A stretch of 47,532 nucleotides of DNA from positions 1 through 47,532 of IMG/VR virus record IMGVR_UViG_2690316161_000023; one strand, given 5' to 3'. The position numbers were made by a program, and so were the translations under genes. Numbering within the stretch: position 1 is the first letter of the stretch; each line of letters opens with the position of its first letter. Shown in pieces: positions 3,535 through 44,134 of this stretch. A model generated the notes under the pieces. It made no database searches. It was not told the origin of the DNA and worked only from the letters and a program-made list of their open reading frames with translations. The stretch comes from a virus. Taxonomy: Duplodnaviria > Heunggongvirae > Uroviricota > Caudoviricetes.

Positions 3535-3535
3535 A

Positions 3536-4201
3536 TTAATATCCTATAGCTAAAAACATAGCGTCTGAGGTGTTTGTATTTACAGCAATATTCATCATGA
3601 CCTGAGCGGTAAATCCTGTATTGCTTACCCACTCGCATGAGTTAGTTATCTGAACCCATGTTAATTTGGTAGAAAAAACGCCCCAGCAATTAACAGGGAA
3701 CGGGACAGGGAAAGTCACTGGCACAGAATTTACTACACCGACAGTAGTCAAATTTGCGAGCGTCCGGCGAAACACCTGAATCTTAAGACCATCAGGACCT
3801 GTAAATAACAAATTATCGGTGTACTGCCCGCTTGCTCTTAAACCAAGGTTTTCGAGAGCCGTTTTCACTGTGCCGTCCGATTTGATATCGCCAAACGGAT
3901 TTTTGCGGCTCAGGTATTCAACAGCAAACCCCGATCCAAGCAATTCAACAAAACCGGGCAGATCACCATTATCAAGCACATCCCGTTGCGTTTTGTCACT
4001 TACAAACTGGGCCAGAGCTGCAGCAATAAAGCTGGCCTGTCGAATGGCTTTGTTCACCTGCGCACTGGATGCTTTCCCTGCTGTAAATCCGGATAAAAGC
4101 GCAGGCAACGCTTCCCATTCCTCCTGCGACATAACATTGGCATTTCGATCCGTTGCAAACGCTTTAAAGTCATTTTTCGCCATCAGAGTAATACTCCCCA
4201 T
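3536..4201 (-). CDS. Tail fibre protein, constant N-terminus fused to the Sv variable C-terminus (copy A)
   Basis: 221 aa; first ~120 aa identical to the 285-aa fibre at 7502-8359 and diverging after ...TALENLGL. Confidence 0.72.
   Translation of the reverse strand: MGSITLMAKNDFKAFATDRNANVMSQEEWEALPALLSGFTAGKASSAQVNKAIRQASFIAAALAQFVSDKTQRDVLDNGDLPGFVELLGSGFAVEYLSRKNPFGDIKSDGTVKTALENLGLRASGQYTDNLLFTGPDGLKIQVFRRTLANLTTVGVVNSVPVTFPVPFPVNCWGVFSTKLTWVQITNSCEWVSNTGFTAQVMMNIAVNTNTSDAMFLAIGY
3833..3858. other. hix/gix-like crossover site inside the tail fibre gene (copy A)
   Basis: tgctcttaaacc-aa-ggttttcgagag resembles the recalled Hin hixL site; lies exactly where constant and variable fibre sequence meet. 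Confidence 0.6.
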
Positions 4202-4863
4202 GCTCCTACATCAAAACCACTGATGAATTCGTTATCCATATCAAAACCAAAAAATTTTGAGCCTTCCGATGGGGTTTCCACCGAAGGTGTTTCAATGCCA
4301 CCCGCCCATACCCCGGCGGCTTTTACTGTGAGATACCCCTGTTTAATTGCCGCAATTAACTCACGCGATACATCTGAAATATCAGTATCAGGAAAGACCC
4401 AGACCGATATCGTCATGTCCTGGTTATCGACTATCTGCATTCGCAGCCCGGATCCTGCTGTTGCAGCGTCAAGAATTGCCGGAAGAGAATCATTCCGTCC
4501 ATCCCAGTTATTAATCGCAATCTTCGCTTTAAGAATGACACGATAAGTTTCATCGCTGAGGTACATGTATCCGGAATCAGGATCGTATGGTCCCTGCCAT
4601 ACCCCCTGATCATATCCAAGCCCGTCGGTATCCCAGCTGAAATAGACACCTGAGATAGGCTGGCTGACAACACGGCTACGTCCGATCCACAATCCCAGAA
4701 TGTCAAGTTGCACACCAACCGCAGAGTCAATATCAAATGCAGTAATCAGCCCTCTGGTGGCAGCCGCAACATCAATAAGCGGCCGGGTCATCAGATCAAC
4801 ATGCGCAAGAAATTTAGGTTTAGTGGCGTGGTAGTTCGTGATTAGTTCGGTGTATTTGCTCAT
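4183..4863 (-). CDS. Baseplate/tail protein (Mu gp48 / P2 gpI-like), copy A
   Basis: 226-aa ORF between the baseplate J-like gene and the tail fibre gene; identical copy at 8341-9021. Confidence 0.55.
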   Translation of the reverse strand: MSKYTELITNYHATKPKFLAHVDLMTRPLIDVAAATRGLITAFDIDSAVGVQLDILGLWIGRSRVVSQPISGVYFSWDTDGLGYDQGVWQGPYDPDSGYMYLSDETYRVILKAKIAINNWDGRNDSLPAILDAATAGSGLRMQIVDNQDMTISVWVFPDTDISDVSRELIAAIKQGYLTVKAAGVWAGGIETPSVETPSEGSKFFGFDMDNEFISGFDVGAWGVLL

Positions 4864-6059
4864 GACTCCACCGTTATAACGATATTTTCCGGGGTACAGG
4901 ACGCAGATTCGTTGTATCTGATATCAATGTTTGATGACGACAAAGCCCCCGGGGATTTCCCAATCGTCAGTTCCTGAATATCGTAATAGCGTGCATCCCC
5001 GCCACTCACCACGCCAAGATTCGCCGGTGAGTAAATGCGACTTAAAAGGACCGAATCACCAATCATCAGACTATTGATATAGTCGGAAATAGCCTGCTGG
5101 ATCTGCTGCCCTATCTGTGAGGTATAACCCGTAAAAACTTTTAATTTAATCCGGGCATAAACAGGCACATCACTGGAACGCGAGAATTTGATTACATGGG
5201 GATTGCCGTATTTATCCGGAACCGTAACGGATGTTGTACCGTGAGTGGCTGTCCCCTGGCCTTTATTCCCTCTGATAGCCTGAGCAATATCCGTCACATC
5301 ACCGCCATCCACAATTACAGCAACAGAGTGTGGCGGTAACCCGTTACCGTCCTCCGAACCAGTATCGTTTTCATAGAGTTTGTGGCGGGTTACACCGGTA
5401 ACATTAGAAACAGCACCATCCAGTGCTTCAAATGGGGTTATTGATGGCAACGCAACACTTTGCGACTGACGGATACGTAACTCCGCGTCAGTTTCTGCCG
5501 GAGTGCCCACAGTAGCCGCAGCAGGATTAGTTACCGAAACCCAGCCACGGGTTGGCGTATTAATTTCAGTGATAGTTCCAGCCAGCGCCGCCACTGCACC
5601 ACTGACGGAACATGTTGCGGTCGCCATCACTGTACCATCCACGCCGACCACTACTGAAGCAGGCAAACGCCATATCACATTATTACTGTCTTTCACGCTG
5701 CCATTAATGATGGTTGTTCCGGCAGTTCCTGCAAGAAGCAAATCAACCGTAGAGTTCGTCGCGCCTTTACGTGAAATACCATTTATTTTCACGTTACTGG
5801 TCAGTGCAGCCCCATAGCCGGTTGCCGGTGAAAAACAGTTGTAGACAGTTATCGCCATATTATTGGCATCATGAATCGCCAGCGCCATCAGAGCCACCAT
5901 CTGGCCGTCTTTGCTGTCCGGTTCGAGGTAGGCATCACTGCCATAAATCTGCTGAAAATAGCTAATCAGGGTGCTGAGTATCGTCTGATAATCAGGCGCA
6001 CTGATCCCCTCCGCGGTTACCTTTGCAGATAAACCGAGAGAATCAAGGTTCAGAGCCAT
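4860..6059 (-). CDS. Baseplate J-like protein, copy A
   Basis: 399-aa ORF in the baseplate wedge position; differs from copy B (9018-10217) by one residue (D here, N there). Confidence 0.65.
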   Translation of the reverse strand: MALNLDSLGLSAKVTAEGISAPDYQTILSTLISYFQQIYGSDAYLEPDSKDGQMVALMALAIHDANNMAITVYNCFSPATGYGAALTSNVKINGISRKGATNSTVDLLLAGTAGTTIINGSVKDSNNVIWRLPASVVVGVDGTVMATATCSVSGAVAALAGTITEINTPTRGWVSVTNPAAATVGTPAETDAELRIRQSQSVALPSITPFEALDGAVSNVTGVTRHKLYENDTGSEDGNGLPPHSVAVIVDGGDVTDIAQAIRGNKGQGTATHGTTSVTVPDKYGNPHVIKFSRSSDVPVYARIKLKVFTGYTSQIGQQIQQAISDYINSLMIGDSVLLSRIYSPANLGVVSGGDARYYDIQELTIGKSPGALSSSNIDIRYNESASCTPENIVITVES

Positions 6060-6174: not shown

Positions 6175-6189
6175 ATTGGTTTAAGAGCA
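6164..6189. other. Duplication junction formed on a crossover-like site
   Basis: tgatttaacgca-tt-ggtttaagagca: gp46 3' sequence joined to the Sv-side half-site. Confidence 0.5.
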
Positions 6190-6210
6190 AGCGGGCAGTA
6201 CACCGATAAT

Positions 6211-6486: not shown

Positions 6487-6487
6487 T

Positions 6488-7502: not shown

Positions 7503-8359
7503 TATGCAGCCCTCACGATATAGTTAAATGCAATATTCCGTGGACGGGTTTCATTTATCCCATATGCTGTTGTTCTCTGATTCCCGACAAAATATCCATT
7601 TGGATTAGAAGATACAGGATAATCATCAAAATCAAGTGGGCTATCAGCACCCGGCGTCAGGCTTGCAATATATCCTCTTCCCATAACTTCTGATGCTGGT
7701 ATTTCTTTTGTACGATAATCACTAACTCTGAAGAGCTGCCCTTGGTGGGTGTGTGATTCCACTCCTCCATTCTGAAGACTTAGCAAGGCACGTACAGCAT
7801 CAATACCACGCCCGTCATCCCAGCCACGAATAAACTCACCACGTAAATCAGGCAATTTATTTGCCGGATAAGCCTTTGCCAGTTCCGGGTATTCTTCAGC
7901 AGAAAAAGCGGCACCGTTGCATTTCAGCCAGCCTGTTGGCGGAGTGGCTGAAGGCCACGGAACAGGCACCCCAACCGGTAATGCAGAGCCTTCTCCCAAA
8001 CCAAGGTTTTCGAGAGCCGTTTTCACTGTGCCGTCCGATTTGATATCGCCAAACGGATTTTTGCGGCTCAGGTATTCAACAGCAAACCCCGATCCAAGCA
8101 ATTCAACAAAACCGGGCAGATCACCATTATCAAGCACATCCCGTTGCGTTTTGTCACTTACAAACTGGGCCAGAGCTGCAGCAATAAAGCTGGCCTGTCG
8201 AATGGCTTTGTTCACCTGCGCACTGGATGCTTTCCCTGCTGTAAATCCGGATAAAAGCGCAGGCAACGCTTCCCATTCCTCCTGCGACATAACATTGGCA
8301 TTTCGATCCGTTGCAAACGCTTTAAAGTCATTTTTCGCCATCAGAGTAATACTCCCCAT
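7502..8359 (-). CDS. Tail fibre protein, constant N-terminus fused to the Sv' variable C-terminus (copy B)
   Basis: 285 aa; same N-terminus as 3536-4201; C-terminus identical to the segment at 2020-2520. Confidence 0.72.
7992..8017. other. hix/gix-like crossover site inside the tail fibre gene (copy B)
   Basis: ttctcccaaacc-aa-ggttttcgagag. Confidence 0.6.
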
Positions 8360-9021
8360 GCTCCTACATCAAAACCACTGATGAATTCGTTATCCATATC
8401 AAAACCAAAAAATTTTGAGCCTTCCGATGGGGTTTCCACCGAAGGTGTTTCAATGCCACCCGCCCATACCCCGGCGGCTTTTACTGTGAGATACCCCTGT
8501 TTAATTGCCGCAATTAACTCACGCGATACATCTGAAATATCAGTATCAGGAAAGACCCAGACCGATATCGTCATGTCCTGGTTATCGACTATCTGCATTC
8601 GCAGCCCGGATCCTGCTGTTGCAGCGTCAAGAATTGCCGGAAGAGAATCATTCCGTCCATCCCAGTTATTAATCGCAATCTTCGCTTTAAGAATGACACG
8701 ATAAGTTTCATCGCTGAGGTACATGTATCCGGAATCAGGATCGTATGGTCCCTGCCATACCCCCTGATCATATCCAAGCCCGTCGGTATCCCAGCTGAAA
8801 TAGACACCTGAGATAGGCTGGCTGACAACACGGCTACGTCCGATCCACAATCCCAGAATGTCAAGTTGCACACCAACCGCAGAGTCAATATCAAATGCAG
8901 TAATCAGCCCTCTGGTGGCAGCCGCAACATCAATAAGCGGCCGGGTCATCAGATCAACATGCGCAAGAAATTTAGGTTTAGTGGCGTGGTAGTTCGTGAT
9001 TAGTTCGGTGTATTTGCTCAT
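8341..9021 (-). CDS. Baseplate/tail protein (Mu gp48 / P2 gpI-like), copy B
   Basis: Identical to 4183-4863. Confidence 0.55.
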
Positions 9022-10217
9022 GACTCCACCGTTATAACGATATTTTCCGGGGTACAGGACGCAGATTCGTTGTATCTGATATCAATGTTTGATGACGACA
9101 AAGCCCCCGGGGATTTCCCAATCGTCAGTTCCTGAATATCGTAATAGCGTGCATTCCCGCCACTCACCACGCCAAGATTCGCCGGTGAGTAAATGCGACT
9201 TAAAAGGACCGAATCACCAATCATCAGACTATTGATATAGTCGGAAATAGCCTGCTGGATCTGCTGCCCTATCTGTGAGGTATAACCCGTAAAAACTTTT
9301 AATTTAATCCGGGCATAAACAGGCACATCACTGGAACGCGAGAATTTGATTACATGGGGATTGCCGTATTTATCCGGAACCGTAACGGATGTTGTACCGT
9401 GAGTGGCTGTCCCCTGGCCTTTATTCCCTCTGATAGCCTGAGCAATATCCGTCACATCACCGCCATCCACAATTACAGCAACAGAGTGTGGCGGTAACCC
9501 GTTACCGTCCTCCGAACCAGTATCGTTTTCATAGAGTTTGTGGCGGGTTACACCGGTAACATTAGAAACAGCACCATCCAGTGCTTCAAATGGGGTTATT
9601 GATGGCAACGCAACACTTTGCGACTGACGGATACGTAACTCCGCGTCAGTTTCTGCCGGAGTGCCCACAGTAGCCGCAGCAGGATTAGTTACCGAAACCC
9701 AGCCACGGGTTGGCGTATTAATTTCAGTGATAGTTCCAGCCAGCGCCGCCACTGCACCACTGACGGAACATGTTGCGGTCGCCATCACTGTACCATCCAC
9801 GCCGACCACTACTGAAGCAGGCAAACGCCATATCACATTATTACTGTCTTTCACGCTGCCATTAATGATGGTTGTTCCGGCAGTTCCTGCAAGAAGCAAA
9901 TCAACCGTAGAGTTCGTCGCGCCTTTACGTGAAATACCATTTATTTTCACGTTACTGGTCAGTGCAGCCCCATAGCCGGTTGCCGGTGAAAAACAGTTGT
10001 AGACAGTTATCGCCATATTATTGGCATCATGAATCGCCAGCGCCATCAGAGCCACCATCTGGCCGTCTTTGCTGTCCGGTTCGAGGTAGGCATCACTGCC
10101 ATAAATCTGCTGAAAATAGCTAATCAGGGTGCTGAGTATCGTCTGATAATCAGGCGCACTGATCCCCTCCGCGGTTACCTTTGCAGATAAACCGAGAGAA
10201 TCAAGGTTCAGAGCCAT
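9018..10217 (-). CDS. Baseplate J-like protein, copy B
   Basis: 399 aa; one substitution relative to copy A. Confidence 0.65.
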   Translation of the reverse strand: MALNLDSLGLSAKVTAEGISAPDYQTILSTLISYFQQIYGSDAYLEPDSKDGQMVALMALAIHDANNMAITVYNCFSPATGYGAALTSNVKINGISRKGATNSTVDLLLAGTAGTTIINGSVKDSNNVIWRLPASVVVGVDGTVMATATCSVSGAVAALAGTITEINTPTRGWVSVTNPAAATVGTPAETDAELRIRQSQSVALPSITPFEALDGAVSNVTGVTRHKLYENDTGSEDGNGLPPHSVAVIVDGGDVTDIAQAIRGNKGQGTATHGTTSVTVPDKYGNPHVIKFSRSSDVPVYARIKLKVFTGYTSQIGQQIQQAISDYINSLMIGDSVLLSRIYSPANLGVVSGGNARYYDIQELTIGKSPGALSSSNIDIRYNESASCTPENIVITVES

Positions 10218-10570
10218 TACGCCTCCGATGTAACAGTCGTTATTCCATAAAGAGTGTCGATTTCAGCGGAAAACATGACACGTCGGGTCGTGGTATCCAC
10301 TGTCGTATTGAAAGAGAGGATTGATTTAACGCCCCGCGTTTCGAGGATGCGCTTACGGATCGCCAGGTTGTAGGTTTCCGGCTTCTGCTTTCCGAGCACG
10401 GACTGGATCCACGGAGTCCCTTCGGTGGTGTCGAGAAACCATTGCCCATACCACAATTCGAATCGCGTTTTTACCGCCTGCGCCACGGCCTCCGGTGAGT
10501 TAATCAGCCAGGTGTCATCACCGCTGCCAAAGGTGTAATCGCCATCGGCGTCTTCACGTCTGTATCGCAT
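10217..10570 (-). CDS. Baseplate protein (P2 gpW / Mu gp46-like)
   Basis: 117-aa ORF between the gpV-like and J-like genes. Confidence 0.55.
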   Translation of the reverse strand: MRYRREDADGDYTFGSGDDTWLINSPEAVAQAVKTRFELWYGQWFLDTTEGTPWIQSVLGKQKPETYNLAIRKRILETRGVKSILSFNTTVDTTTRRVMFSAEIDTLYGITTVTSEA

Positions 10571-11322
10571 CAGTTTACCCCATCGGTATTGCTTCCACCG
10601 CGCTGAACACCGCCATGAGTGTGCGTATCATCGATTGACTTGCCGTTAGCCTTAACGCTCCCCAAGAACTCAACAGCACCAGTGATTTTTGAAGCCACAC
10701 CAGAAACAACAGACCCCACCATGCCACCCATCCAGGTTAACAGGCCATGAATGGTTACTTTCTCAGAAAAATCAGCCAGAGGGGCAACCACATCAAGACC
10801 ACCCGGAGCGACAATTTTAATTTTCCTGGTGTCAGGATTAAGCTCAAAATAGGTGCTGCCGTCGTCACTACGCAACTGTGTGGCACTGGTATTAATACCG
10901 CTAATCTTCCTCGCCTGCGACTGGGGACCGACAATACAAAACGCATCCGATAAATCATGCATTCTGTCATCAACAGGCTCCTGTATCCCGCCGTTCTGCC
11001 ACCAGAAATCAATACAACGATCGGCAAAAACGACAAGACACTCATCCCTGGCTTTTACCGGAAAAGTCAACGTACAGCCTCCTCCGCGCGGGAATACCAC
11101 TGGCACATCCACCAGCAATGGGTAATTTTGGGTAATGCGGTTGCCGTCATTATCCTTTTCAACCGAACGTATAGCAGGCTGCACAACTGCCGTAACCGCA
11201 TCAGGATCGAATGACTGAATAATGCCAGGCAAGGCGACACGGATCTGGTTCTTTGTTGTTTCCCGTTCAGATTTGAATGTTTCGGCAAGGTCGCCGCAGC
11301 GGGTCTGGTCAGATACTGCCAT
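10570..11322 (-). CDS. Baseplate assembly/spike protein V-like
   Basis: 250 aa with a C-terminal THTHGGVQRGG motif resembling P2 gpV. Confidence 0.65.
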   Translation of the reverse strand: MAVSDQTRCGDLAETFKSERETTKNQIRVALPGIIQSFDPDAVTAVVQPAIRSVEKDNDGNRITQNYPLLVDVPVVFPRGGGCTLTFPVKARDECLVVFADRCIDFWWQNGGIQEPVDDRMHDLSDAFCIVGPQSQARKISGINTSATQLRSDDGSTYFELNPDTRKIKIVAPGGLDVVAPLADFSEKVTIHGLLTWMGGMVGSVVSGVASKITGAVEFLGSVKANGKSIDDTHTHGGVQRGGSNTDGVN

Positions 11323-11340
11323 TTAGTAGGCTCCAGAAAG

Positions 11341-11371
11341 CAAAAAACCCGCCATCCGGCGGGTTTTATGT
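11341..11371 (-). terminator. Rho-independent terminator after the lipoprotein gene
   Basis: Minus-strand hairpin aaaacccgcc-ggat-ggcgggtttt followed by a T-rich run. Confidence 0.6.
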
Positions 11372-11387
11372 GACTAATTTGATCTTT

Positions 11388-12113
11388 TCAGTTTATAAGC
11401 CCCATCTTACCGGCGCTTCGATAGTTAATTACATCGCCTGAAGAGCCGCAAGGCACAGCTACAGTCGACATTTTGACAAATCCTTTACCGCCCTGCTTTT
11501 GGCATAAAGTGGCATGCATTTTTGCTAAACGCGCAGCATGACCAAAATCAATTTTGGTTCCGTAAGTTGAATCTCGTAGAGCTGCTTTTTTGGCAATTCC
11601 AGTAATATTTTTGTCTTTAATTACAGATGCAAACAAACTCAAATCATTTCCAATTTGATTGAAGCAAGTACGATTAATATCAACATCGGCATACGCTGAA
11701 ATGCGTTTGCAATCTGAGATCTGAGAAAGCACAGATGTGTTAACCAGTTGCAAATTTAATTTGTAGTCACCGACATAGGTATAAACTTTGTTAGGGTCCG
11801 TGGTTCCCGGATAACGAGTTACGAATGGAATGCTGTTGTACGCATCTCGCAAAGATTCTGCACCCTTACTTTTAAGCTCGTTCCCAACACCAGCAACGAT
11901 AACCTCTGGATGTGAAACTTCAAATTGAGACTTTTCTTCGCGCTGTATTTGAAGCCTGCTTTTCTGGCTCTCCTCAACTTGCTTATCGTACGCTTGTTTT
12001 TCTTCATTTTTTTGGGATAGCCATTTTTCCTGCGCTTTAGCACCATTAGGATCCCAACTACATGAAGTTAAAAAAAGAGAAAATACGATTGTGGTTATCG
12101 CAAGCCTGCTCAC
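11388..12113 (-). CDS. Lipoprotein of unknown function (inserted gene within the baseplate operon)
   Basis: 241 aa; N-terminal signal peptide with lipobox LTSC; charged K/E/Q-rich segment; visibly AT-richer than neighbouring tail genes. Confidence 0.6.
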   Translation of the reverse strand: MSRLAITTIVFSLFLTSCSWDPNGAKAQEKWLSQKNEEKQAYDKQVEESQKSRLQIQREEKSQFEVSHPEVIVAGVGNELKSKGAESLRDAYNSIPFVTRYPGTTDPNKVYTYVGDYKLNLQLVNTSVLSQISDCKRISAYADVDINRTCFNQIGNDLSLFASVIKDKNITGIAKKAALRDSTYGTKIDFGHAARLAKMHATLCQKQGGKGFVKMSTVAVPCGSSGDVINYRSAGKMGLIN

Positions 12114-12115
12114 TA

Positions 12116-13180
12116 TTATGCACCTCGATTCATCGCTGACTGGCTAGGAATATCACTAGCACCTCGAGCAAAGCACATCATATCCATGTACCACGCCTGG
12201 CCCCTTGTGTCGCCAGTGTACATAATACCGCGCACAATATAAACGCCATCCGTTGCGATGCTGGCAGGCTGCGATGTGGTGCCGCTTAGCGTGATATTTC
12301 CATCCGTGTTCTGGTCGGTGATCTGACCACCAGCCATCGCAATATCGTTGTTCGACAAGGCGGTACGATACACGGAAGCCTGATCCAGCTGAATGAGTCC
12401 GTTAACCCGGATGTTCGGATTAATAAGCGCGCGGACGTTTACGCCGTTACCGATAGTCTGCTGCGGCATGCCAATAAGCCCGGTAGCGCTGTTGAGCACA
12501 ATCGCTTCATGAACATATTCGTTATTCGCCACCATCTGGCGCTGACCGTCCACGAATTGCCATGTTGCGCCACATTGCCCGGCTACGTTATCCATTAGAT
12601 GCCGCGTCATGCCAAAGAGTACCCGCCCCCGGGGGAATACAGTAGCAGGCATTTCAGGCGTCAGGCCTTCGGTCGCACCTTTGGCTTCGAAGTCTTTCAT
12701 CAGCGCACGGTTTACATCAGCGACCGTGTAACCGGCAGCCAGCGTCTGTGAGGTTATACTGGTGGCAAAAGCCAGATCAGTATCTGCTGCCTGAATCAGG
12801 ACGTAGGAATCAACCGGACTGTCTTTTCCTGTGACCGAGTAGCGAATTTCACCGCTGAAAATCAGTCCGTAGTTGCGGCCATCACTCTGACCCACGTCCG
12901 CCGCGTCAACTTCCCGCACGGTCCCGACGTCGCTTGCCGACACCTCCGGCGCGATACCGTCGTAACCGGCAATCAGACGCACTTTCGAAAACTCCTGCCC
13001 GGTGATTCGGTTCACAGTATCTGCCGAGAGGTTATAAATTTTGATAGTCCCTACCCGGGACGCGCTGCTGATGTTGAACCAGTCGATCGTAAAGGTGACT
13101 TTAAAATCACTTAGCTCAATTCCCTGACCGTTCCCGTCCACAAGCTGCAGCTCGAAATGTCTCATCCAGTTCTGTGACAT
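12116..13180 (-). CDS. Baseplate hub / tail structural protein (Mu gp44 or P2 gpD position)
   Basis: 354-aa ORF between the tape measure region and gpV-like gene; assignment by position. Confidence 0.45.
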   Translation of the reverse strand: MSQNWMRHFELQLVDGNGQGIELSDFKVTFTIDWFNISSASRVGTIKIYNLSADTVNRITGQEFSKVRLIAGYDGIAPEVSASDVGTVREVDAADVGQSDGRNYGLIFSGEIRYSVTGKDSPVDSYVLIQAADTDLAFATSITSQTLAAGYTVADVNRALMKDFEAKGATEGLTPEMPATVFPRGRVLFGMTRHLMDNVAGQCGATWQFVDGQRQMVANNEYVHEAIVLNSATGLIGMPQQTIGNGVNVRALINPNIRVNGLIQLDQASVYRTALSNNDIAMAGGQITDQNTDGNITLSGTTSQPASIATDGVYIVRGIMYTGDTRGQAWYMDMMCFARGASDIPSQSAMNRGA

Positions 13181-13182
13181 GC

Positions 13183-13485
13183 TTACTCCGTTGATACCAG
13201 TAAATGGCTGCGACAGCCCAGGTCAGTTTTTGTGGGGTAATCCTGTGTGTTGTCATCACAGACCACCACCAGCTTAAAACCAAGCCCCATACAGGCGTAC
13301 TGCGCCAGCAGGTCAGCACCAGTGACGAGAGGAATACCGGAGATTACCGGCTCCCCTCTGTCGTTCTGCAGGTCCATAATCCAGTACAGATCGCGCCATA
13401 TGATGCTAATCCGCCAGGTGACACCACCCAGGACGATGCTGAACTGCTGGTTGTCCGCTGTCAGCGGAATTTCCTGAATTGTCAT
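13183..13485 (-). CDS. Hypothetical tail protein
   Basis: 100-aa ORF in the tail operon. Confidence 0.35.
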   Translation of the reverse strand: MTIQEIPLTADNQQFSIVLGGVTWRISIIWRDLYWIMDLQNDRGEPVISGIPLVTGADLLAQYACMGLGFKLVVVCDDNTQDYPTKTDLGCRSHLLVSTE

Positions 13486-14072
13486 TAGCCGCCCCCCAGT
13501 AATGACGCCACGTTACCCGTGATGCTTTTCAGCAGTGAAGTATCTGGAGGTTTTGTGGTTTTGTTGCCGCTGTTCTGTACCGCCGACGTGCTGGCCCCTT
13601 CCTTCATGTTGGTTTTATCCGCGACGGTAATCTGCTGTGTCCGGGAGATAATGACCTCCCTCAGGGTGAGGACGGCGGACAGGACGTTTTCGCTTGTCTT
13701 GTCCGTCGTCACTTCCAGCGCCCGGATCAACATGTTGCTGTACAGCCGTTTACCGGTTACCACATCGAAGGGGATACGGCTTTCCTGCAGATCCAGTAGC
13801 TCCTGATACGTCTGCTGAGGACTCAGGCCGAGCAGGCTGGTAGCCGTCAGGTTACTGGCAAAATCCAGCAATGCGCCGCCACCGGCGAAACCAACCTCCA
13901 TCACCACTTCTGACGGTTTTTTATAGGCATGATCAGCGACAGCGGCCCCGACCTCTACCGGATGCTCGGTTATTTCAAGCATATCTGTATGCTTCTCTGA
14001 AATAACAACACTGGGAACAATCATTCCTATTTTTCTGCTCTGCTGATGAAAAAGTGTAGAGAGAATATCCAC
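13485..14072 (-). CDS. Hypothetical tail protein
   Basis: 195-aa ORF directly after the tape measure gene. Confidence 0.4.
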   Translation of the reverse strand: MDILSTLFHQQSRKIGMIVPSVVISEKHTDMLEITEHPVEVGAAVADHAYKKPSEVVMEVGFAGGGALLDFASNLTATSLLGLSPQQTYQELLDLQESRIPFDVVTGKRLYSNMLIRALEVTTDKTSENVLSAVLTLREVIISRTQQITVADKTNMKEGASTSAVQNSGNKTTKPPDTSLLKSITGNVASLLGGG

Positions 14073-16081
14073 TAACCCACCCTCACCTGATTACTTCGCA
14101 TGACCTGAGCATTTGCAGACTGTTGCCGACGTGCAACCTCATTACCGACAGCGTGCGGATCTCCGCCACCGTAAATGTGGTAGGTATTTTGCTGGTTAAC
14201 CTCTGTCACTTTGCCACTAATTCCCGCCACGGCAGCCTTATTAATCAGCTCCCGAGAATAGATATTTCTTCCATTCTCATGCTGGATAATGCTGCTCATC
14301 AATGCTGACATGGTTTGCGGATCGCTCATATTCAGGGCAGCCCGGGAATCCACTCCCAGTCGTTGCGATACAGCCCTGATATACGCAGTTGTGTTGTTAT
14401 TATCAGACGCAGGAGCCCAGGTAGAGATAATTTTCTCCACACTGTTTATTCCCCGTCCAGCGTACAGCATTAACTGACGAGCAAGAGCCCGTAATCCATC
14501 AAAGGCAGTTTCAAATCTGGCAAATCGCCCGCCCGGGCGTTCAAGAGAAGCCCCTGCCTGACCAGCAAAATTAAGGTTTCCCGGATTGTTATTCCGTTCT
14601 CCTCGTTTCGTAGCCTGTGCATGTTGTTCCGGCTCATCATCACCAAACCAGCCGCGTACCGTCCGGCCCACACTGCGGGGATCGAATCCCCAGTGCTCTT
14701 TAATCCAGTCGGCAGTACTGTTAGCGCTGTCTGTAACCATCGGCATCGCTGACGGATTTTCGCTGCCCTGATTAAGTATCTGTTTGCCGATGCTGACGGC
14801 ATCAGCCCAGCGGCCATCTTTGATAGCGTTGAGCAGGTCAGCGATCATGTTCAGCATTTTGCTGAATTCGCCCATCTGGTCGATGAAGTTGCTGAAATCC
14901 CACTTCAGGGACCATGATTTGGGGTCAATATTGAGCAGTTTCGCCAGCGCTTTCACCAGGTCGTTAACGGTCGTTTTAAGGTCACGAACCATCTTCAGCG
15001 CGGCATCGACCTCCGGTTTCCACTTGCCCCAGTCAATCAGGCTGTCGCCGCCTTCCTTCCAGGTCTGATAGTCCTCCCACAGGAGGGCAATACCCGCCGC
15101 CAGCGCGGTAATGAGGCCAATCGGCGACATCCAGAACGTACTGTTCAGAATGCGCAGCGCAATCGTCAGTGCGCCAAACAGCGAGATCAACTCCCGCGTT
15201 TGCTTATCCAGCGATTGCCACCAGGTGATAAGGCCTGATGTCCCCTCAATCAGTCTGAAGAACAGCCGCCCAATAATATCCCCGAGCGCCAGAATGCCTT
15301 TTATGGCTTTCGTCAGGGTCTGCTCGATACGAGGGAAGTTGTCCAGGATATGGCGGCGCAGGGTGTCCAGCGAACCCGCAAGCCCCCCCGCAAGATTAGA
15401 GCCGATTTTGTCACGGGCCATGCCTGCCATCGCGCCAAACTCACGCAGGGAGGTCATAAATTTGTTGGAGCTTCTGGCCGCCTCGTCAGCATTGAAGCCG
15501 ATAGCTTTCGCCATTGCGCTGTACTGCCCGGAGAAGCCACCCACACCCCGGCGCATCGCCATAAGGGTATTTTCGTCAATGCCCAGCATCTGCGCATACT
15601 GGTTAGCCCGGTAATACGGCATGCTGCTGAGTTTCTGTCCAACGCCCGTAAAAATAGCGGCCATGTCACGCATGTTACCGCTGGCATCACGGGTCTGTAC
15701 GCCCAGGCGATTCAGAAAGCCTTCTGCACCGGGATTGTTACGAATAAACCGGGAGAGGCTTTCCAGAGAAGATCGCGCAGCGTCCACGCTGCCGCCAACC
15801 TGCGAAACCGCATAGCCAATAGACTGAATTCCCTGGACTGTCGCGCCGGTGCGCTGTGACGCCCAGTAAAGATTATCCAGGCCGGAGGCGATCTTAGCCG
15901 TGAAGGCCACCACGGACAGCGCAGCTCCTTCAACAGCCAGCCCCATTTTGATGACATTTGCAGTTGTACCGGCGAGGACAGAACCGAACTTTTTCGCTCC
16001 TGCATCATCCACACTGAAGCCAAGCGAGACGAGGAAATCTTTAATAGTTTCAGCGTTCATTATCCTCTCTCCATTTCTCAA
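14072..16081 (-). CDS. Tail tape measure protein
   Basis: 669-aa ORF after the tube and chaperone genes; ORF call starts on TTG, a downstream ATG (MNAETIKD, about 16060) is the likelier start. Confidence 0.7.
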   Translation of the reverse strand: MRNGERIMNAETIKDFLVSLGFSVDDAGAKKFGSVLAGTTANVIKMGLAVEGAALSVVAFTAKIASGLDNLYWASQRTGATVQGIQSIGYAVSQVGGSVDAARSSLESLSRFIRNNPGAEGFLNRLGVQTRDASGNMRDMAAIFTGVGQKLSSMPYYRANQYAQMLGIDENTLMAMRRGVGGFSGQYSAMAKAIGFNADEAARSSNKFMTSLREFGAMAGMARDKIGSNLAGGLAGSLDTLRRHILDNFPRIEQTLTKAIKGILALGDIIGRLFFRLIEGTSGLITWWQSLDKQTRELISLFGALTIALRILNSTFWMSPIGLITALAAGIALLWEDYQTWKEGGDSLIDWGKWKPEVDAALKMVRDLKTTVNDLVKALAKLLNIDPKSWSLKWDFSNFIDQMGEFSKMLNMIADLLNAIKDGRWADAVSIGKQILNQGSENPSAMPMVTDSANSTADWIKEHWGFDPRSVGRTVRGWFGDDEPEQHAQATKRGERNNNPGNLNFAGQAGASLERPGGRFARFETAFDGLRALARQLMLYAGRGINSVEKIISTWAPASDNNNTTAYIRAVSQRLGVDSRAALNMSDPQTMSALMSSIIQHENGRNIYSRELINKAAVAGISGKVTEVNQQNTYHIYGGGDPHAVGNEVARRQQSANAQVMRSNQVRVG

Positions 16082-27360: not shown

Positions 27361-27573
27361 TCAGTCCCGAACAAACGTAACCTTCGTGTTTGTCGCTCGC
27401 CTTACAAGGCGCGCCGCTTCGCGTTGCATTTCATCGATAACTTTTTGCGTCATCGGCTGATGCGCATATTTACGTTCAATCTCTGCAAAAATTCCGTTCA
27501 TCGTTTCGCTGTCTGGTGGGATAACTTCAACGTTTAATCGTGCCATTGGTTTGTGCTGCCCTGTTTTTCTCAA
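27361..27573 (-). CDS. Small hypothetical protein
   Basis: 70-aa ORF between the spanin and terminase genes. Confidence 0.3.
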   Translation of the reverse strand: MRKTGQHKPMARLNVEVIPPDSETMNGIFAEIERKYAHQPMTQKVIDEMQREAARLVRRATNTKVTFVRD

Positions 27574-27805
27574 AAGTCCTGATATCGGCCTTATCCCTGT
27601 TGCACTGTGCTAACGCTGACAGCAACGCAACATTCAGGTTAAGGCTGGCTCCCCACGTAAACGGGTCGGGTAAATCTGGCTGGGGTGTTTCATCCGTCAG
27701 ACTGGCTGGTAACGGAACGACCGGCACCGACACGTATACCGTTCGCGTATTCGTGCAACCGCTTAACTGCGCCAGAAGGAACGATACGAACAGCGCAATC
27801 ATCAT
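27527..27805 (-). CDS. o-spanin (Rz1-like outer-membrane lipoprotein)
   Basis: Second-frame ORF overlapping the 3' end of the Rz-like gene; signal peptide with lipobox LSGC; proline-rich. Confidence 0.6.
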   Translation of the reverse strand: MMIALFVSFLLAQLSGCTNTRTVYVSVPVVPLPASLTDETPQPDLPDPFTWGASLNLNVALLSALAQCNRDKADIRTFEKNRAAQTNGTIKR

Positions 27806-28082
27806 CCGCAACAGCCACTTTGATATCTTCCTGGGTTCTCTGTGACTCCAGTGCGATCTGCTGTTTTGCATGCTGGTTAGCCTCTATAACTGTATTGATG
27901 ATTTGCAGTGATTGCAGGACGTTACTGGTAATGGCTGTTGCAGATTCAGCATTTCGTACAGCCTCATCAGCACGCTCCTTTTCGTACTGATATTTGCTGT
28001 AGTAATGCCCGGCATACCAGATAAAAGAACCGATGACGGTAACAAAGAAGGCAACAATAACCAGCTTATATCTCAGCTTCAT
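27690..28082 (-). CDS. i-spanin (Rz-like)
   Basis: 130 aa; N-terminal transmembrane helix then coiled-coil-like segment; directly after the endolysin gene. Confidence 0.65.
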   Translation of the reverse strand: MKLRYKLVIVAFFVTVIGSFIWYAGHYYSKYQYEKERADEAVRNAESATAITSNVLQSLQIINTVIEANQHAKQQIALESQRTQEDIKVAVADDDCAVRIVPSGAVKRLHEYANGIRVGAGRSVTSQSDG

Positions 28083-28542: not shown

Positions 28543-28545
28543 TAA

Positions 28546-28905
28546 TTACTCCTTATGGACACCGAACTTGTTACCGATGACCCTCATTGCCGCACCACGA
28601 ATAGCATCGACACCAATCAGCCCCACCCCACCACCAATGGCAACAGAAAGTGATTTAGGCCATCCGACATACTCAAGCGCGGATGCAAAGGTCAGCGTCA
28701 GGGCACCACAGAGCAAAATCTCAAGCGTTTTTCGTTTCCAGCCCCCACCACCGCCAAAATAGGCGATGCGCAAACCAGCCATAACGATCGACATAATCAC
28801 TGCACCCAGCGGTGTGTCTCCACGCCACCAGCTCTGAAACAACTCCAGCCAGTCCGGCCAGGTATTTGGGTTATGAGGCATTTCATCATCTCTCACCTCG
28901 CACAT
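28546..28905 (-). CDS. Putative holin
   Basis: Small protein with hydrophobic helices immediately upstream of the endolysin; start uncertain. Confidence 0.55.
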   Translation of the reverse strand: MCEVRDDEMPHNPNTWPDWLELFQSWWRGDTPLGAVIMSIVMAGLRIAYFGGGGGWKRKTLEILLCGALTLTFASALEYVGWPKSLSVAIGGGVGLIGVDAIRGAAMRVIGNKFGVHKE

Positions 28906-29377: not shown

Positions 29378-29959
29378 TTAAAGCTGCATCAACCTTTCCA
29401 CCAGTTTATCTCTGCGAACAACAAACCAACCATTGGCTCTCGCCAGTTCCAGCCATGACTCAAGGGAAATAACAATATCATCATCCCGCAACTGAATTGT
29501 GGAAACAGTGACACCGCCTCGCTGATAACAGAGAACTCGCGTGTCGTAACTTTTCTGGCATGAAACTGGCGCTGACGGATCCTTTTGTCTGAAATAGCAG
29601 TCTTCCAGCTTTTCGAACACATCCCACGCCTGATCGGTTTCGAGCATTTTGGCATGACGGGCTGCTCCGCGTTCTGTCCAGAGGATGAGGGAGCGGGCTT
29701 TCGGGGAAATTTGTAACCCTCTTAAAGATGGTTGCAAATTTTGTGAGTAGTTTAAAGCTACCCGCAAATTTTTCAGGGCATCACCAGCCACTTTGAAAAA
29801 ATGCTTTCCTTCAATAAAGCGCTCAGCATTTCTGGCGTAGTTATTTTGAATGTTCTTAACTTCAGCACCGTACAACTGCGCCAAAAGTTCGGTGGTAATA
29901 ACAGGAATCTGGTTATGGGTGATCGGGGAGAGAGTTTCAACAGAAATTTGAGTTGTCAT
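29378..29959 (-). CDS. ORF6N/KilA-N-like (antirepressor-type) domain protein
   Basis: 193 aa; N-terminus LAQLYGAEVKNIQNNYARNAERFIEGKHFFKV typical of the domain; lies between the late promoter and the lysis genes. Confidence 0.45.
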   Translation of the reverse strand: MTTQISVETLSPITHNQIPVITTELLAQLYGAEVKNIQNNYARNAERFIEGKHFFKVAGDALKNLRVALNYSQNLQPSLRGLQISPKARSLILWTERGAARHAKMLETDQAWDVFEKLEDCYFRQKDPSAPVSCQKSYDTRVLCYQRGGVTVSTIQLRDDDIVISLESWLELARANGWFVVRRDKLVERLMQL

Positions 29960-32824: not shown

Positions 32825-33757
32825 ATGCACAGCGTTAACTTCTATTCATTCCGTGTGTTAACCCACAAGGGCAGCCGAACCAGCAAAAGACTAAACAACC
32901 TAGGTTTAAGCGATAAAAAAACAGCATATGAATTATTTGTTGAGTATTTTAATAGCTATAAAAACACACCTATTGAATTTGGTCTCTCGAAAACAAAGGT
33001 TTCTCTTGAACAACACACATCACTCACCTTTGATGCTCAAAACCAAGTAATATATGGATATGTAAAGGTTGGGAAATATGGTGAGAGCAGTGAAATAAAA
33101 GACGATAAACTTACTAAAATACGTTATACAACAACTATCAACGATGTAACTCTCAAACAGCGTTACATTTTAATATTTTTGCCAGACAATTTAGAAGAAG
33201 GGATTATAGCATTTCACGCTAATGACAATATTTCTGCTCGCAGCACACTCTCTGATGCATTACTAGACCACTTGAAAACAAAATATAAACTTGAAGCGAG
33301 AATCAATCCCCTTTGCCACAAAAAAATTCCCCAACACATCCTTGATTCAGAATTAAAACAAATAAAAGCCCAAGGTTACAAAGCACCAAAGGACATCACG
33401 GATTCATTCGGAAATAACAAAACAAACATCAAAACTGATTTGGTAATAAAAGCAAATCAAGGCGTATTTGGTAGTTTTAAAGACTTAAAAGACAAAAAAC
33501 TAGGAAATATAATAGAAATAATTGAAGATAAGTGTGACGCAATAAAAGTTAGTTTACAATTAGGCAATAGAACAGTCATTTTTAATTACGACACCATCTT
33601 AAGAAAAGGAATTTCTGCCGAATTAGATGATAACGACTTAAACATAAACGCATCTACAGGAATCCCCGATCTTAAAGCACTTCATGACACTGTTAAAATC
33701 ATTGCGAATGATATACTAAGTGAGTTACATAGTGGTAATGGGGGAGTAAAAATATGA
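32825..33757 (+). CDS. Unrecognised 310-aa protein, first gene of a low-GC two-gene module
   Basis: AT-rich ORF with RBS aaggac before the ATG; opposite strand to the surrounding early operon; overlaps the next gene by 4 bp. Confidence 0.6.
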   Translation: MHSVNFYSFRVLTHKGSRTSKRLNNLGLSDKKTAYELFVEYFNSYKNTPIEFGLSKTKVSLEQHTSLTFDAQNQVIYGYVKVGKYGESSEIKDDKLTKIRYTTTINDVTLKQRYILIFLPDNLEEGIIAFHANDNISARSTLSDALLDHLKTKYKLEARINPLCHKKIPQHILDSELKQIKAQGYKAPKDITDSFGNNKTNIKTDLVIKANQGVFGSFKDLKDKKLGNIIEIIEDKCDAIKVSLQLGNRTVIFNYDTILRKGISAELDDNDLNINASTGIPDLKALHDTVKIIANDILSELHSGNGGVKI

Positions 33758-34309: not shown

Positions 34310-34318
34310 ACAATGGAA

Positions 34319-34342: not shown

Positions 34343-34370
34343 TGATGTTCTAAGGGTGCAGAAATCCCTC

Positions 34371-38570: not shown

Positions 38571-38996
38571 TCAATGCACTACGACAGAATCGCCGGGCGA
38601 CCCACCACCGCTGAAATGTGCTTTCCGGTAAACGGCCTGGACTGCATCATCATGCGCATCAATTGCCGTACTCAACGCTTCCTGCGCCGCCAGTAATGCA
38701 CGGCGTTCCAGGGTATCGAAGATGCAGAGTCGGTGACGCAGCTCGCGCGGAAGAATTGCCAGAACCGCAGGGATCAGTTTCTGAATTTTTTCCCTTTGCG
38801 CTTTCGTTTCACCTTTCAACCAACGGTGATAGATATTCTGCTGATTGTTCCAGTCCTTGCCTGGTACAAGGGGCAATTCGCCGCCCCCCCCCTGGCGCAG
38901 ATATTCTTCAGTAATTGCGTTAGCGACCCACGCCTGCCCTTTTTCGGCTGCCAGGGCTAACAACACTGATTCGATGTGCTTATGCCTGATTTTCAT
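38571..38996 (-). CDS. YdaT-like protein (CII-position; reported toxin in Rac)
   Basis: 141-aa ORF following the Cro-like gene; resembles recalled Rac YdaT. Confidence 0.5.
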   Translation of the reverse strand: MKIRHKHIESVLLALAAEKGQAWVANAITEEYLRQGGGGELPLVPGKDWNNQQNIYHRWLKGETKAQREKIQKLIPAVLAILPRELRHRLCIFDTLERRALLAAQEALSTAIDAHDDAVQAVYRKAHFSGGGSPGDSVVVH

Positions 38997-41458: not shown

Positions 41459-44134
41459 ATGAGCACCGATAAACAAGTTTACCCACTGTATTACGAAGCA
41501 AAAAATGACAAAGTAAGAAAACGTCTCGGTATTAAAGGCGGTTTCTACTGGGCTGAAGCGAAAAAATTATCCATTGCCATCTCCCGTGGTGCTGTTGCGA
41601 TTGACGATGCTGGCTACGATGAAGATGACTTTAAAAAACCTGTTCGCGTCAATTTGCCCGTTGTTGATGACCTTCCACCAGAAGGCGTATTTGATACGGA
41701 ATTCTGCAACCGTTACGAAAAAGGCGGGGAAGATGGCATCACAATGGTATTTATCGCGCCCTCATCCTCTGCGCAGGACAAGCCAGCCAGCACTGACAAT
41801 ACCAATGTTAATGGCGAAGACATGACGGAGATTGAGGAGAATATGCTACTCCCGATTTCCGGTCAGGAGCTGCCCATTCGCTGGCTTGCTCAACACGGCA
41901 GCGAAAAACCGGTAACGCACGTTTCACGCAACGAACTACAGGCATTACACATTGCACGAGCTGAAGAACTACCAGCTGTTACTGCCCTGGCTGTTTCCCA
42001 CAAAACCAGCCTGCTCGACCCGCTGGAAATTCGCGATCTCCACAAACTGGTGCGTGATACTGACAGAGTTTTCCCTAATCCAGGCAATTCAAGCCTGGGG
42101 CTGATGACTGCTTTTTTCGAAGCATACCTGGACGCAGACTACACCGATCGCGGTCTGCTGACAAAAGAGTGGATGAAAGGAAACCGTGTTTCACGCATCA
42201 CGCGCACGGCTTCCGGCGCTAATGCTGGCGGCGGGAACCTCACCGATCGCGGCGAAGGTTTCATTCACGATCTGACGTCACTGGCGCGCGACGTAGCCAC
42301 TGGCGTACTGGCTCGTTCAATGGACGTGGACATTTATAACCTTCATCCGGCACACGCTAAACGTGTCGAGGAAATTATCGCTGAAAATAAACCGCCCTTT
42401 TCTGTTTTCCGCGACAAATTCATCACCATGCCTGGCGGGCTGGATTATTCCCGCGCCATCGTGGTTGCGTCCGTAAAAGAAGCACCAATTGGGATCGAGG
42501 TTATCCCCGCACACGTCACTGAATATCTTAACAAAGTACTGACTGAAACTGATCATGCCAACCCTGATCCAGAAATCGTGGATATTGCCTGCGGTCGTTC
42601 CTCTGCCCCGATGCCGCAGCGTGTAACAGAAGAAGAAAAACAGGATGATGAAGAAAAACTGCAACCATCTTGCGCAATGGCAGATGAACAGGCAACGGCT
42701 GAAACAGTGGAACCGGATGCAACTGAACATCATCAGGACACGCAGCCGCTGGATGCTCAGTCACAGGTAAATTCTGTTGATGCGAAATATCAGAAACTGC
42801 GGGCAGAACTCTATGAAGCCCGGAAAAACATTCCGCCCAAAAATCCTGTCGATGCAGACAAATTACTGGCTGCCTCTCGCGGAGAATTTGTTGAAGGGAT
42901 TAGCGACCCGAATGATCCGAAATGGGTTAAGGGAATTGAAACCCGAGATTCTGTGAACCAGAACCAGCCCAAATCGGAACAAAACAACCAGAAAGCGGAA
43001 CAAAACAGCCAAAATGCACAGAAAAATGAGCCAGAAACGAAACAATCTGAACCAGTAGCGCAACAGGAACCGGAAAAAGTCTGTGCCGCCCGCGGTCAGA
43101 GCGGTGGCGGCAACTGCCCTGATTGTGGCGCGGTGATGGGCGACACCACATATCAGGAAACCTTTAATGAAGAAAATCTGGATGAATCTCAGGAAAAAGA
43201 TCCGGAGGAAATGGAAGGCCCTGAACATCCGCACAATGAGAATGCTGGCAGCGATCCGCATCGCGATTGCAGTGATGAAACTGGCGAAGTCGCAGATCCC
43301 GTAATCGCAGGAGACATAGAGCCTGGTATTTATTACGGAATTTCGAATGAGAATTACCACGCGGGTCCCGGTGTCAGTAAGTCTCAGCTCGACGACATTG
43401 CTGATACTCCGGCTCTGTATTTGTGGCGTAAAAATGCCCCAGCGGACACCACAAAGACAAAAACGCTCGATTTAGGAACCGCTTTCCACTGCCGTGTACT
43501 TGAACCGGAAGAATTCAGTAACCGCTTTATCGTGGCACCTGAATTTAACCGCCGTACAACCGCCGGAAAAGAAGAGGAGAAAGCGTTTCTGATGGAATGC
43601 GCAAGCACAGGAAAAACGGTTATCACTGCCGAAGAAGGCCGGAAAATTGAACTCATGTATCAGAGCGTTATGGCTTTGCCGCTGGGTCAATGGCTTGTTG
43701 AAAGCGCCGGACACGCTGAATCATCAATTTACTGGGAAGATCCTGAAACAGGAATTTTGTGTCGGTGCCGTCCGGACAAAATTATCCCTGAATTTCACTG
43801 GATCATGGACGTGAAAACCACAGCGGATATTCAACGATTCAAAACGGCTTATTACGACTACCGCTATCACGTTCAGGATGCATTCTACAGTGACGGTTAT
43901 GAAGCACAGTTTGGTGTGCTGCCAACTTTCGTTTTTCTGGTTGCCAGCACAACTGTTGAATGCGGACGTTACCCGGTTGAGATTTTCATGATGGGCGAAG
44001 AAGCAAAACTGGCAGGCCAGCAGGAATATCACCGCAATCTGAGGACCCTGGCTGACTGCCTGAATACCGATGAATGGCCAGCTATTAAAACGTTATCACT
44101 GCCCCGCTGGGCTAAGGAGTATGCAAATGACTAA
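41459..44134 (+). CDS. recE: Exodeoxyribonuclease VIII (RecE)
   Basis: 891 aa; C-terminal nuclease domain; overlaps and precedes recT. Confidence 0.8.

Follow-up and report, generated by a model that had tools for sequence, protein, structure and literature searches.

Why does a gene for an exported lipoprotein lie between two baseplate genes of a contractile-tailed phage? This study addressed the question for a 241-aa open reading frame (ORF) on the minus strand of IMG/VR virus record IMGVR_UViG_2690316161_000023 (Caudoviricetes; 47,532 nucleotides, the whole of which is hereafter termed the window), where the ORF is flanked by the genes for the baseplate hub and the central spike. The original prediction had described a lipoprotein with the lipobox LTSC between a hub-like and a gpV-like gene and had regarded it as a one-off insertion in the operon. 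The ORF, the lipobox, the phrog_196 match of the hub, and the PF18352 and GpV Apex matches of the spike confirmed the description. The picture of a one-off insertion was replaced by a different one: a census of 78 hub-spike loci revealed that the lipoprotein is one allele of a standing slot. The position after the hub gene is a standing site in the SEN34-like (Brunovirus-like) contractile-tail modules of enterobacterial prophages, and the window gene is its rare type C allele.

The census set comprised the window, four Escherichia coli prophages, four phages, two metagenomic loci, and 67 loci taken at one genome per species, and the slot occupants were assigned through a hidden Markov model (HMM) census of the hub-spike gaps. 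The gap measured only 37-69 nt in 10 of the 78 modules, which were among the most distant of the set (hub 43-51% identical); because these modules leave the gap empty, nothing encoded in the slot is needed to build the baseplate. In 66 of the other 68 loci, the first gene after the hub lay on the same strand, usually starting within a few nucleotides of the hub stop codon, and all 66 of these genes encoded an exported protein. Type A (approximately 113 aa, signal-peptidase-I signal, beta-rich, two cysteines, phrog_3443) was found at 56 loci, including those where it is fused to a common N-terminal domain. Type B (approximately 153 aa, secreted) was found at 4 loci and type C, that of the window lipoprotein, at 6. 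No locus carried more than one of the three types, and the occupant always stood in position 1 after the hub. The original prediction had named conservation as a virion component of related phages as the observation that would speak against an accessory gene. Such conservation in related tail modules, which is expected of a baseplate virion protein, was not found for the lipoprotein in the 78-locus census, where the slot was empty in 10 modules, held the unrelated type A in 56, and held type C only in the six cases mentioned.

The occupants are related in a modular manner. An hhalign comparison revealed homology of types B and C over residues 84-202 of the window protein (probability 97.8%, E 1.3e-12), and the two share a helical core. 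Type A was unrelated to this B/C superfamily. A common lipoprotein N-domain was found fused ahead of each type, giving N+A in loci L036 and L057, N+B in L031, and N+C in L039. The N-fused lipoproteins of these four loci are 288-379 aa long, and their N-domain carries the motif KKRPGW..DDCQT and matches no family.

Truly variable cargo begins at slot position 2. A recurrent pair at positions 2-3, encoding proteins of approximately 250 aa and 130 aa (phrog_17809 and phrog_5176), was observed in L002 (2389-3541), L016, L017, L021, L041, L044, L057, L091, and L096. The approximately 130-aa protein gave weak HEPN matches (Pfam E 0.002; PADLOC HEPN_IX E 0.003), and the two genes are a candidate toxin-antitoxin or abortive-infection pair. 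A 184-aa membrane protein encoded by the cargo of L004 (2560-3114) gave a weak PycTM match.

Prophages that are otherwise nearly identical differ at this site. A prophage that is 98.8% identical over window positions 10000-13500 occupies the lambda attachment site of an E. coli chromosome and combines lambdoid early genes with a contractile tail. Only its head and tail modules are found in the window, which has its own integrase, RecE-like gene, and lysis cassette. The 3.5-kb region was matched by 369 complete E. coli genomes, of which just 12 matched across the lipoprotein gene. In the other E. coli genomes examined, the hub and spike genes were 97-99% identical and the intervening DNA was different; among E. 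coli prophages with flanks of this identity, the occupant is A, B, or C. Across 5,426 complete E. coli genomes, A-like DNA was present in 287 and B-like DNA in 12 (3 at full length), and type C was present at full length in 12, with short weak matches in 2 more. One carrier of the gene is E. coli NCTC9022 (LR134237.1), at 99.2% identity. The hub protein was matched at 82% by Salmonella phage SEN34 (genus Brunovirus) and at 97% by four E. coli phages, and also by Klebsiella, Hafnia, Citrobacter, and Yersinia phages. Two or three small genes occupy the same hub-spike spot in SEN34, vB_EcoM-689R2, Klebsiella phage Mulock, and Hafnia phage yong1.

The window ORF is a genuine gene and no chance reading frame, because its ratio of nonsynonymous to synonymous substitution rates (dN/dS) against the Citrobacter allele is 0.16 and homologues stand at the same position in 28 of 28 IMG/VR loci. 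Its stop codon lies at 11388..11390. At the other end, the hub TAA stop codon (12118..12116) is followed by 2 nt and then by the GTG start codon of the lipoprotein gene (12113..12111); the minus strand across this junction reads ...CGA GGT GCA TAA TA GTG AGC AGG..., in which the predicted start and the Shine-Dalgarno sequence (gaggtg) can be read directly. The gene is AT-richer than its neighbours, as had been predicted, with a GC content of 0.409 and a third-position GC content (GC3) of 0.343, compared with 0.537 and 0.594 for the hub and 0.502 and 0.486 for the spike. These values support the view that the gene is an insertion of foreign composition in the baseplate operon. In RefSeq (NZ_CM136170.1), the lipoprotein is called an HMG-box domain-containing protein (L001 4389-5114), a name that looks spurious and is probably due to the K/E/Q-rich helix described below; the name of the sheath-initiator homologue in the same record, thioredoxin domain-containing protein (L001 3218-3571), also looks spurious.

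The slot ends at a hairpin that resembles an intrinsic terminator. In the window, this hairpin (11367..11344) has a 10-bp stem, a GGAU loop, and a U6 tract, with a dG of -18.6 kcal/mol. The original prediction had assigned it to the lipoprotein gene as its own terminator, and this assignment did not hold: the hairpin lies in the flank common to prophages with other cassettes (homology up to 11364-11367), and nearly all relatives (approximately 60 loci), including five with an empty slot (L070, L071, L075, L078, and L084), have the same hairpin 16-25 nt ahead of their spike ATG. It therefore belongs to the conserved backbone, and the slot cargo always lies upstream of it. The stem varied in a compensatory manner among the relatives, with CCCGC/GCGGG as the common form and CCTGC/GCAGG, GCCGC/GCGGC, CCCAC/GTGGG, GGTCGC/GCGGCC, CCCAGC/GCTGGG, and CCCGTC/GACGGG as variants. 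Placed midway through a baseplate operon, an intrinsic terminator implies either antitermination or a deliberate split of the operon into two units.

A promoter-like element was located in the 3' end of the hub gene, 102-130 nt upstream of the GTG codon. It scored 9.5 of a maximum of 16.5 with a position weight matrix (PWM), which is below the threshold of the consensus scan. Promoter-like scores were enriched upstream of the slot, but this enrichment is confounded by the homology of the hub sequences. Because all hubs are homologous, the recurrence of the element alone proves nothing, and a synonymous-site test was used instead, covering 135 conserved degenerate codons in 28 non-redundant loci with cargo and terminator (pairwise hub identity under 90%). 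The results revealed that the Thr322 codon, whose third base is the last T of the -10-like hexamer, was ACT in 96% of the sequences and was the second most constrained of the 135. The Tyr314 codon was TAT in 93% and ranked third in constraint, tied with one other codon. The element was missing in the empty loci and in a subclade that has type A but no terminator. It is common to all cassette types and so belongs to the slot rather than to the lipoprotein gene specifically. The synonymous constraint is indirect evidence of a nucleotide-level function, which may be that of a slot promoter, and with this weak element 100-130 nt upstream an independent transcription of the slot appears possible. 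At the least, translational coupling of the start codon to the hub argues for expression late in the lytic cycle.

The gene was compared with the moron definition of Juhala and Hendrix as given in PMC3594210 (extra DNA, deviant GC content, an own promoter with prophage expression, and an own terminator). The DNA is extra relative to relatives, with a hub-spike gap of 794 nt in the window against the 37-69 nt of the ten empty modules, and its GC content is unlike that of the surrounding genes. As to a promoter, no site passed the consensus scan, and the weak element in the hub gene is a feature of the slot. The hairpin is not specific to the lipoprotein gene and does not count as its own terminator.

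The export signal of the lipoprotein, of the signal-peptidase-II type, is clear in the N-terminus, which reads MSRLAITTIVFSLFLTSC, followed by SWD after Cys18. Its positively charged N-region, hydrophobic core, and lipobox are arranged as M-S-R-LAITTIVFSLF-LTSC, and the lipobox L15-T16-S17-C18 agrees with the pattern [LVI][ASTVI][GAS]C within about the first 15-35 residues and is followed by serine at position +2. Cys18 was invariant across 14 aligned homologues, and a lipobox was present in 18 of 18 further relatives with a recovered N-terminus, none of which had aspartate at +2. The Lol +2 rule governs lipoprotein sorting in E. coli; by this rule, the serine at +2, in place of aspartate, predicts sorting to the outer membrane. 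The protein is thus predicted to be cleaved and acylated at Cys18 and to be sorted to the inner leaflet of the outer membrane, facing the periplasm.

An AlphaFold2 model built from the 14-sequence alignment (mean pLDDT 85.6) comprised a disordered signal peptide, a long helix, and an alpha/beta globule. The helix (residues 22-67, approximately 46 residues) may be a stalk that tethers the globular domain to the lipid anchor. In the alignment, the globule contained four conserved cysteines (135, 150, 204, and 222) and the invariant motifs SHPEV, FVTR, C-x-R-x-SAY, and IDFGHAARLAKMH, and it is probably disulfide-bonded. Some homologues have a Pro/Ala-rich linker in place of the helix, and the soluble type B proteins lack a tether. 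Because the helix is replaceable and the tether is absent in type B, the conserved requirement is presence in the periplasm and not attachment to the outer membrane. Searches of Pfam, NCBIfam, and PADLOC with the lipoprotein gave no match, a PHROGs search gave only a marginal match over the signal peptide and helix, and a PDB profile search gave only spurious matches. A Foldseek search of the model against BFVD returned a single unnamed protein (H9C1A6, E 2.8e-3, TM 0.44).

The type C family is small and is tied to this site. It formed 15 clusters at 90% identity among 5.8 billion proteins and 36 clusters at 50% identity among 1.84 billion proteins, and its members came in two sizes, as short lipoproteins of 200-246 aa and as N-fused forms of 330-378 aa. 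In the INPHARED phage collection, direct searches gave no match to the lipoprotein at either the DNA or the protein level. Every type C homologue with genomic context, including all 28 in IMG/VR, lay between hub and spike, and among the homologues found none lay elsewhere in a chromosome or in another phage type. Such loci include the metagenomic relative L011-L013, Limnobaculum L014, Citrobacter L093-L095, L096, and the Serratia, Rouxiella, and Shimwellia loci of the census. Type C diverged roughly in step with the hub (identities of 44% for the lipoprotein and 56% for the hub in L011, and of 40% and 50% in L014), but inheritance was not strictly vertical: L108 has a hub that is 92% identical and a lipoprotein that is only 48% identical, and L100 has a lipoprotein that is 99% identical and a spike that is only 69% identical. 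Against the Citrobacter allele, the dN of the lipoprotein gene was 6 times that of the hub gene. These substitution rates indicate that the gene is under purifying selection yet fast-evolving.

The order of the baseplate block in the window is tape measure, Dit-like, Pam3-type plug, hub, lipoprotein gene, spike, sheath initiator, Baseplate_J, wedge, and fibre. The features of the locus are listed in Table 1.

Table 1. Features of the post-hub slot and of the genes that flank it in the window.
Feature	Position	Strand	Basis or remark
Central spike gene, 250 aa, immediately downstream	10570..11322	-	Gp138-type N-domain PF18352 (E 7e-43); GpV Apex motif PF18946
Backbone intrinsic-terminator-like hairpin, AAAACCCGCC-GGAU-GGCGGGUUUU and U tract	11338..11367	-	22 nt before the spike ATG
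Variable cassette	11368..12110	.	blastn alignments of the window with L002-L005 break off at 11364-11367 and start again at 12110-12173
Lipoprotein coding sequence, type C occupant of the post-hub slot	11388..12113	-	ORF list, sequence, homologues, dN/dS 0.16
Alpha/beta globular domain, residues 68-241 (approximately 175 residues)	11391..11912	-	Model and alignment
Single long K/E/Q-rich alpha-helix, residues 22-67, approximately 69 A if extended	11913..12050	-	AlphaFold2 model
Signal peptide, residues 1-18	12060..12113	-	Lipobox LTSC at 12071..12060; Cys18 predicted as the acylated N-terminus
Baseplate hub gene, 354 aa, immediately upstream	12116..13180	-	phrog_196 (E 7e-88); PF22759 weak (E217_GP41)
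Shine-Dalgarno sequence GAGGTG	12126..12121	-	Sequence; within the final hub codons, 7 nt 5' of the GTG
Candidate internal promoter within the hub gene	12215..12243	-	-35-like TTTATA (12243..12238), 17-nt spacer, -10-like TACACT (12220..12215)

What, then, might the slot be for? We consider the window protein an accessory, non-structural exported protein and tentatively favour superinfection exclusion in the periplasm as its function. This explanation is favoured because the occupants are exported and dispensable for the baseplate, and because a single slot with interchangeable occupants and modular fusions is strictly linked to one tail type. The fast dN and the shuffling of alleles between flanks that are 97-99% identical are as expected for a gene in a conflict. 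Further points in its favour are the foreign GC3 (0.34 against 0.59 for the hub), the defence-like weak matches (HEPN and PycTM) in the neighbouring cargo, the precedent of HK97 gp15 (PMC3594210), and the possibility of a separate transcription unit.

The slot supplies a mature domain, either A or a member of the unrelated B/C superfamily, in a free form, a lipid-anchored form, or a form fused to the common N-domain. In the mechanism that we propose, the occupant would be cotranslated with the late tail genes, and the weak promoter within the hub gene may add transcripts that end at the hairpin before the spike gene. In the window allele, the helical stalk would hold the globular domain in the periplasm, anchored to the inner leaflet of the outer membrane, and we infer that the protein acts in the periplasm of a lysogen or an infected cell. 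The globular domain would meet the incoming tail tip (the spike or tape-measure complex) after it has penetrated the outer membrane. It would then block passage through the cell wall or the inner membrane, or the entry of DNA, in the manner of T4 Spackle, TP-J34 Ltp, or HK97 gp15.

Several observations weigh against this explanation. Similarity to known exclusion proteins or defence families was not found in the Pfam, NCBIfam, PHROGs, PADLOC, PDB profile, and structure searches, and neither sequence nor fold similarity was found to Cor, Llp, Ltp, Bor, Lom, SieA, or Sp/Imm. The structure model of type A was poor (pLDDT 60) and gave no fold-based lead. The consensus scan detected no sigma-70 promoter on the minus strand of 10400-13400; given this and the coupling to a late structural gene, expression in a repressed prophage is putative. 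With regard to the promoter-like element, the favoured Tyr314 codon TAT fits the -35 consensus worse than TAC would, and the constraint on synonymous sites may be due to a role other than that of a promoter. The slot type co-varied neither with the neighbouring spike nor with the C-terminal domain of the tape measure, type C being found both with that domain (window, L011, and L014) and without it (L039 and L041). Because of this lack of co-variation, no specific cognate tail target is indicated or can be named.

The tape measure (window 14072-16081) was itself mosaic at its C-terminus. Its last approximately 190 residues, which carry the motif NNPGN, were present at full length, reduced to 40-60 residues of similarity, or absent among the relatives, and this mosaicism was independent of hub identity and slot type. 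RefSeq annotates the tape-measure homologue as a lytic transglycosylase, and Pfam finds no such domain in it.

Exclusion by an envelope protein has precedents with which the slot may be compared. PMC3594210, which summarises the work of Cumby et al. (2012) on HK97 gp15, describes a tail-operon moron whose product acts against phages at the DNA-entry stage, leaving the surface receptor untouched and with a specificity set by the tail of the incoming phage. The window gene is like the gp15 gene portrayed there in being an extra gene of deviant GC content, with an envelope product, within the tail operon of a lambdoid prophage. It differs in that gp15 is a small inner-membrane protein of the YebO family, encoded between the chaperone and tape-measure genes, for which prophage expression has been demonstrated. 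The window protein is a predicted 241-aa outer-membrane lipoprotein of an unrelated, uncharacterised family.

The lipoproteins Cor (phi80, N15, and HK022), Llp (T5), and Ltp (TP-J34) are similar in that they are phage-encoded and act from the envelope on an incoming phage (for background on these exclusion lipoproteins, see PMC3952083 and PMC3594210). The presumed target of Ltp is the tape measure, and that of Cor and Llp is FhuA. However, Cor and Llp are small, Ltp comes from a phage of a Gram-positive host, and none of the three is encoded in a hub-spike slot or has soluble periplasmic proteins as alternative alleles. For the soluble A and B occupants, the closest analogy is Spackle (Sp) of T4, a small exported protein that works in the periplasm, at the tip of a contractile tail, as an inhibitor of the tail-spike lysozyme.

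The slot also resembles the accessory or defence hotspots of temperate phages, such as those of P2 and P4, and the classical morons, in which alternative low-GC cargo occupies a fixed site in near-identical prophages with a terminator behind it. Unlike in such hotspots, position 1 of the slot always holds one exported protein from a small set of interchangeable domains. A further likeness is to the periplasmic immunity genes linked to vgrG in type VI secretion systems (T6SS), which encode exported proteins or lipoproteins beside the spike gene of a contractile machine and are highly variable and swapped as cassettes. This likeness is one of analogy only, because no effector partner was seen, neither sequence similarity nor significant fold similarity was found, and no toxin is known to be carried by the phage spike. 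Extending the analogy, the slot could be the phage counterpart of T6SS-spike immunity genes, a periplasmic tail-tip immunity that neutralises contractile tails of the same family after they have punctured the outer membrane. The A, B, and C alleles would then mark exclusion groups within a set of otherwise near-identical prophages, and the slot would be switched on in lysogens through the weak hub promoter and the backbone terminator. We regard this extension as doubtful.

Among the alternatives to periplasmic exclusion, the protein might be a helper of the lytic cycle, which would be made late and act in the envelope of the producing cell, either tuning lysis and release or keeping infected cells and debris from using up progeny and superinfecting particles, the latter being the presumed role of T5 Llp. 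The start codon 2 nt past the hub stop with its Shine-Dalgarno sequence inside the hub gene, the similarly tight coupling in most relatives, the lack of a strong independent promoter call, and the strict linkage of the slot to one tail type are all consistent with this role. Against it, ten relatives have no slot gene, and the slot may be a unit of its own, bounded by the conserved terminator and the constrained promoter-like element. The window also has a complete separate lysis cassette, with a holin gene (28546..28905), an Rz-like gene (27690..28082), and an Rz1/LysC-like gene within 27527..27871, and a periplasmic protein alone cannot stop adsorption to the outer face of debris. We consider a lytic helper rather unlikely. 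A role as an Rz1-like outer-membrane spanin, which would be a small lipoprotein encoded in the lysis cassette inside or beside the i-spanin gene, was considered separately and rejected, because the protein is 241 aa long and encoded in the tail operon, and separate holin, Rz-like, and LysC/Rz1-like genes lie at 27527-28905.

The predicted sorting to the outer membrane would also fit receptor masking, a role that the original prediction had named beside superinfection exclusion in the lysogen. Here the lipoprotein, bound to an outer-membrane receptor from the periplasmic side, would make it unusable for phage adsorption, since Cor and Llp are proteins of that kind (Cor: PMC3594210). Approximately 80% of the relatives, however, hold a soluble secreted A or B protein without a lipid anchor in the slot; the anchor is thus optional for slot function, and receptor masking is correspondingly less likely, so that we judge it improbable.

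A still less probable role is that of a host-fitness or virulence moron similar to lambda Bor or Lom, which would confer serum resistance, adhesion, or stress tolerance. Morons often encode such factors (PMC3594210), and the foreign GC content, the envelope location, and the occurrence in clinical and animal E. coli isolates agree with this role. Yet all homologues found stand at one place in one type of tail module, a poor fit for a generic host factor, no match to Bor or to any Pfam or NCBIfam family was found, and the gene is rare in E. coli (12 of 5,426 genomes). Finally, a structural or assembly role in the baseplate, which the position within the baseplate block and the coupling to the hub might suggest, is close to refuted by the cleavable export signal with its lipobox (tails assemble in the cytoplasm), the foreign composition, the absence in ten relatives, and the presence of unrelated proteins between near-identical hub and spike genes in most others.

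Other parts of the window yielded separate observations. The fibre end of the tail module (2013-10332) was rearranged, with a perfect 1,834-nt inverted repeat pairing 2013-3846 with 6176-8009 (fibre and chaperone genes) and a direct repeat, starting at 3830 and 7988, through which the wedge (4183..4863) and Baseplate_J (4860..6059) genes appear a second time. None of the 5,426 complete E. coli genomes contained this arrangement in one place at a coverage of at least 80%, and the relatives L011 and L012 carry a resolvase or invertase beside the fibre genes. The rearrangement may be an invertible fibre segment assembled in both orientations or a real duplication. In the early region, an island of very low GC content (0.32-0.35) spans 32500-34500 and contains a 310-aa ORF on the plus strand (32825..33757) with no Pfam match, which is probably another acquired accessory gene. 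Near this island lie a YdaT-toxin-like gene (38571..38996), an ORF6N-domain gene (29378..29959), and a RecE-like 891-aa gene (41459..44134).

A moron-like envelope protein in a tail operon is of a known kind. The C, A, and B protein families and the common N-domain are all unannotated, and searches of the literature on SEN34, Brunovirus, S. Typhi locus tags, exclusion lipoproteins, and morons brought up no paper on this locus. What appears to be new is a fixed post-hub slot whose first gene is always exported and drawn from a few swappable domains, with a backbone terminator and possibly a constrained internal promoter. Even if the exclusion explanation is wrong, the rule that the first post-hub gene is always exported still calls for an explanation.

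Blocks that act on phage genome entry at the level of the envelope are few, and understanding of them is poor; a 2026 paper (PMC13128918) states that the inhibition of DNA ejection is essentially undescribed for bacterial systems. The slot offers a compact candidate set, with two unrelated exported domain families in several architectures and natural near-isogenic prophages that differ only in the cassette, and its occupants are also found in many other Enterobacterales. If the tail-tip immunity version were true, an uncharacterised defence acting at the injection stage would be present in approximately 5% of complete E. coli genomes. If exclusion in the periplasm is the function of the slot, it would explain part of the prophage-mediated resistance of clinical E. 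coli, Klebsiella, and Salmonella and would be relevant to phage therapy.

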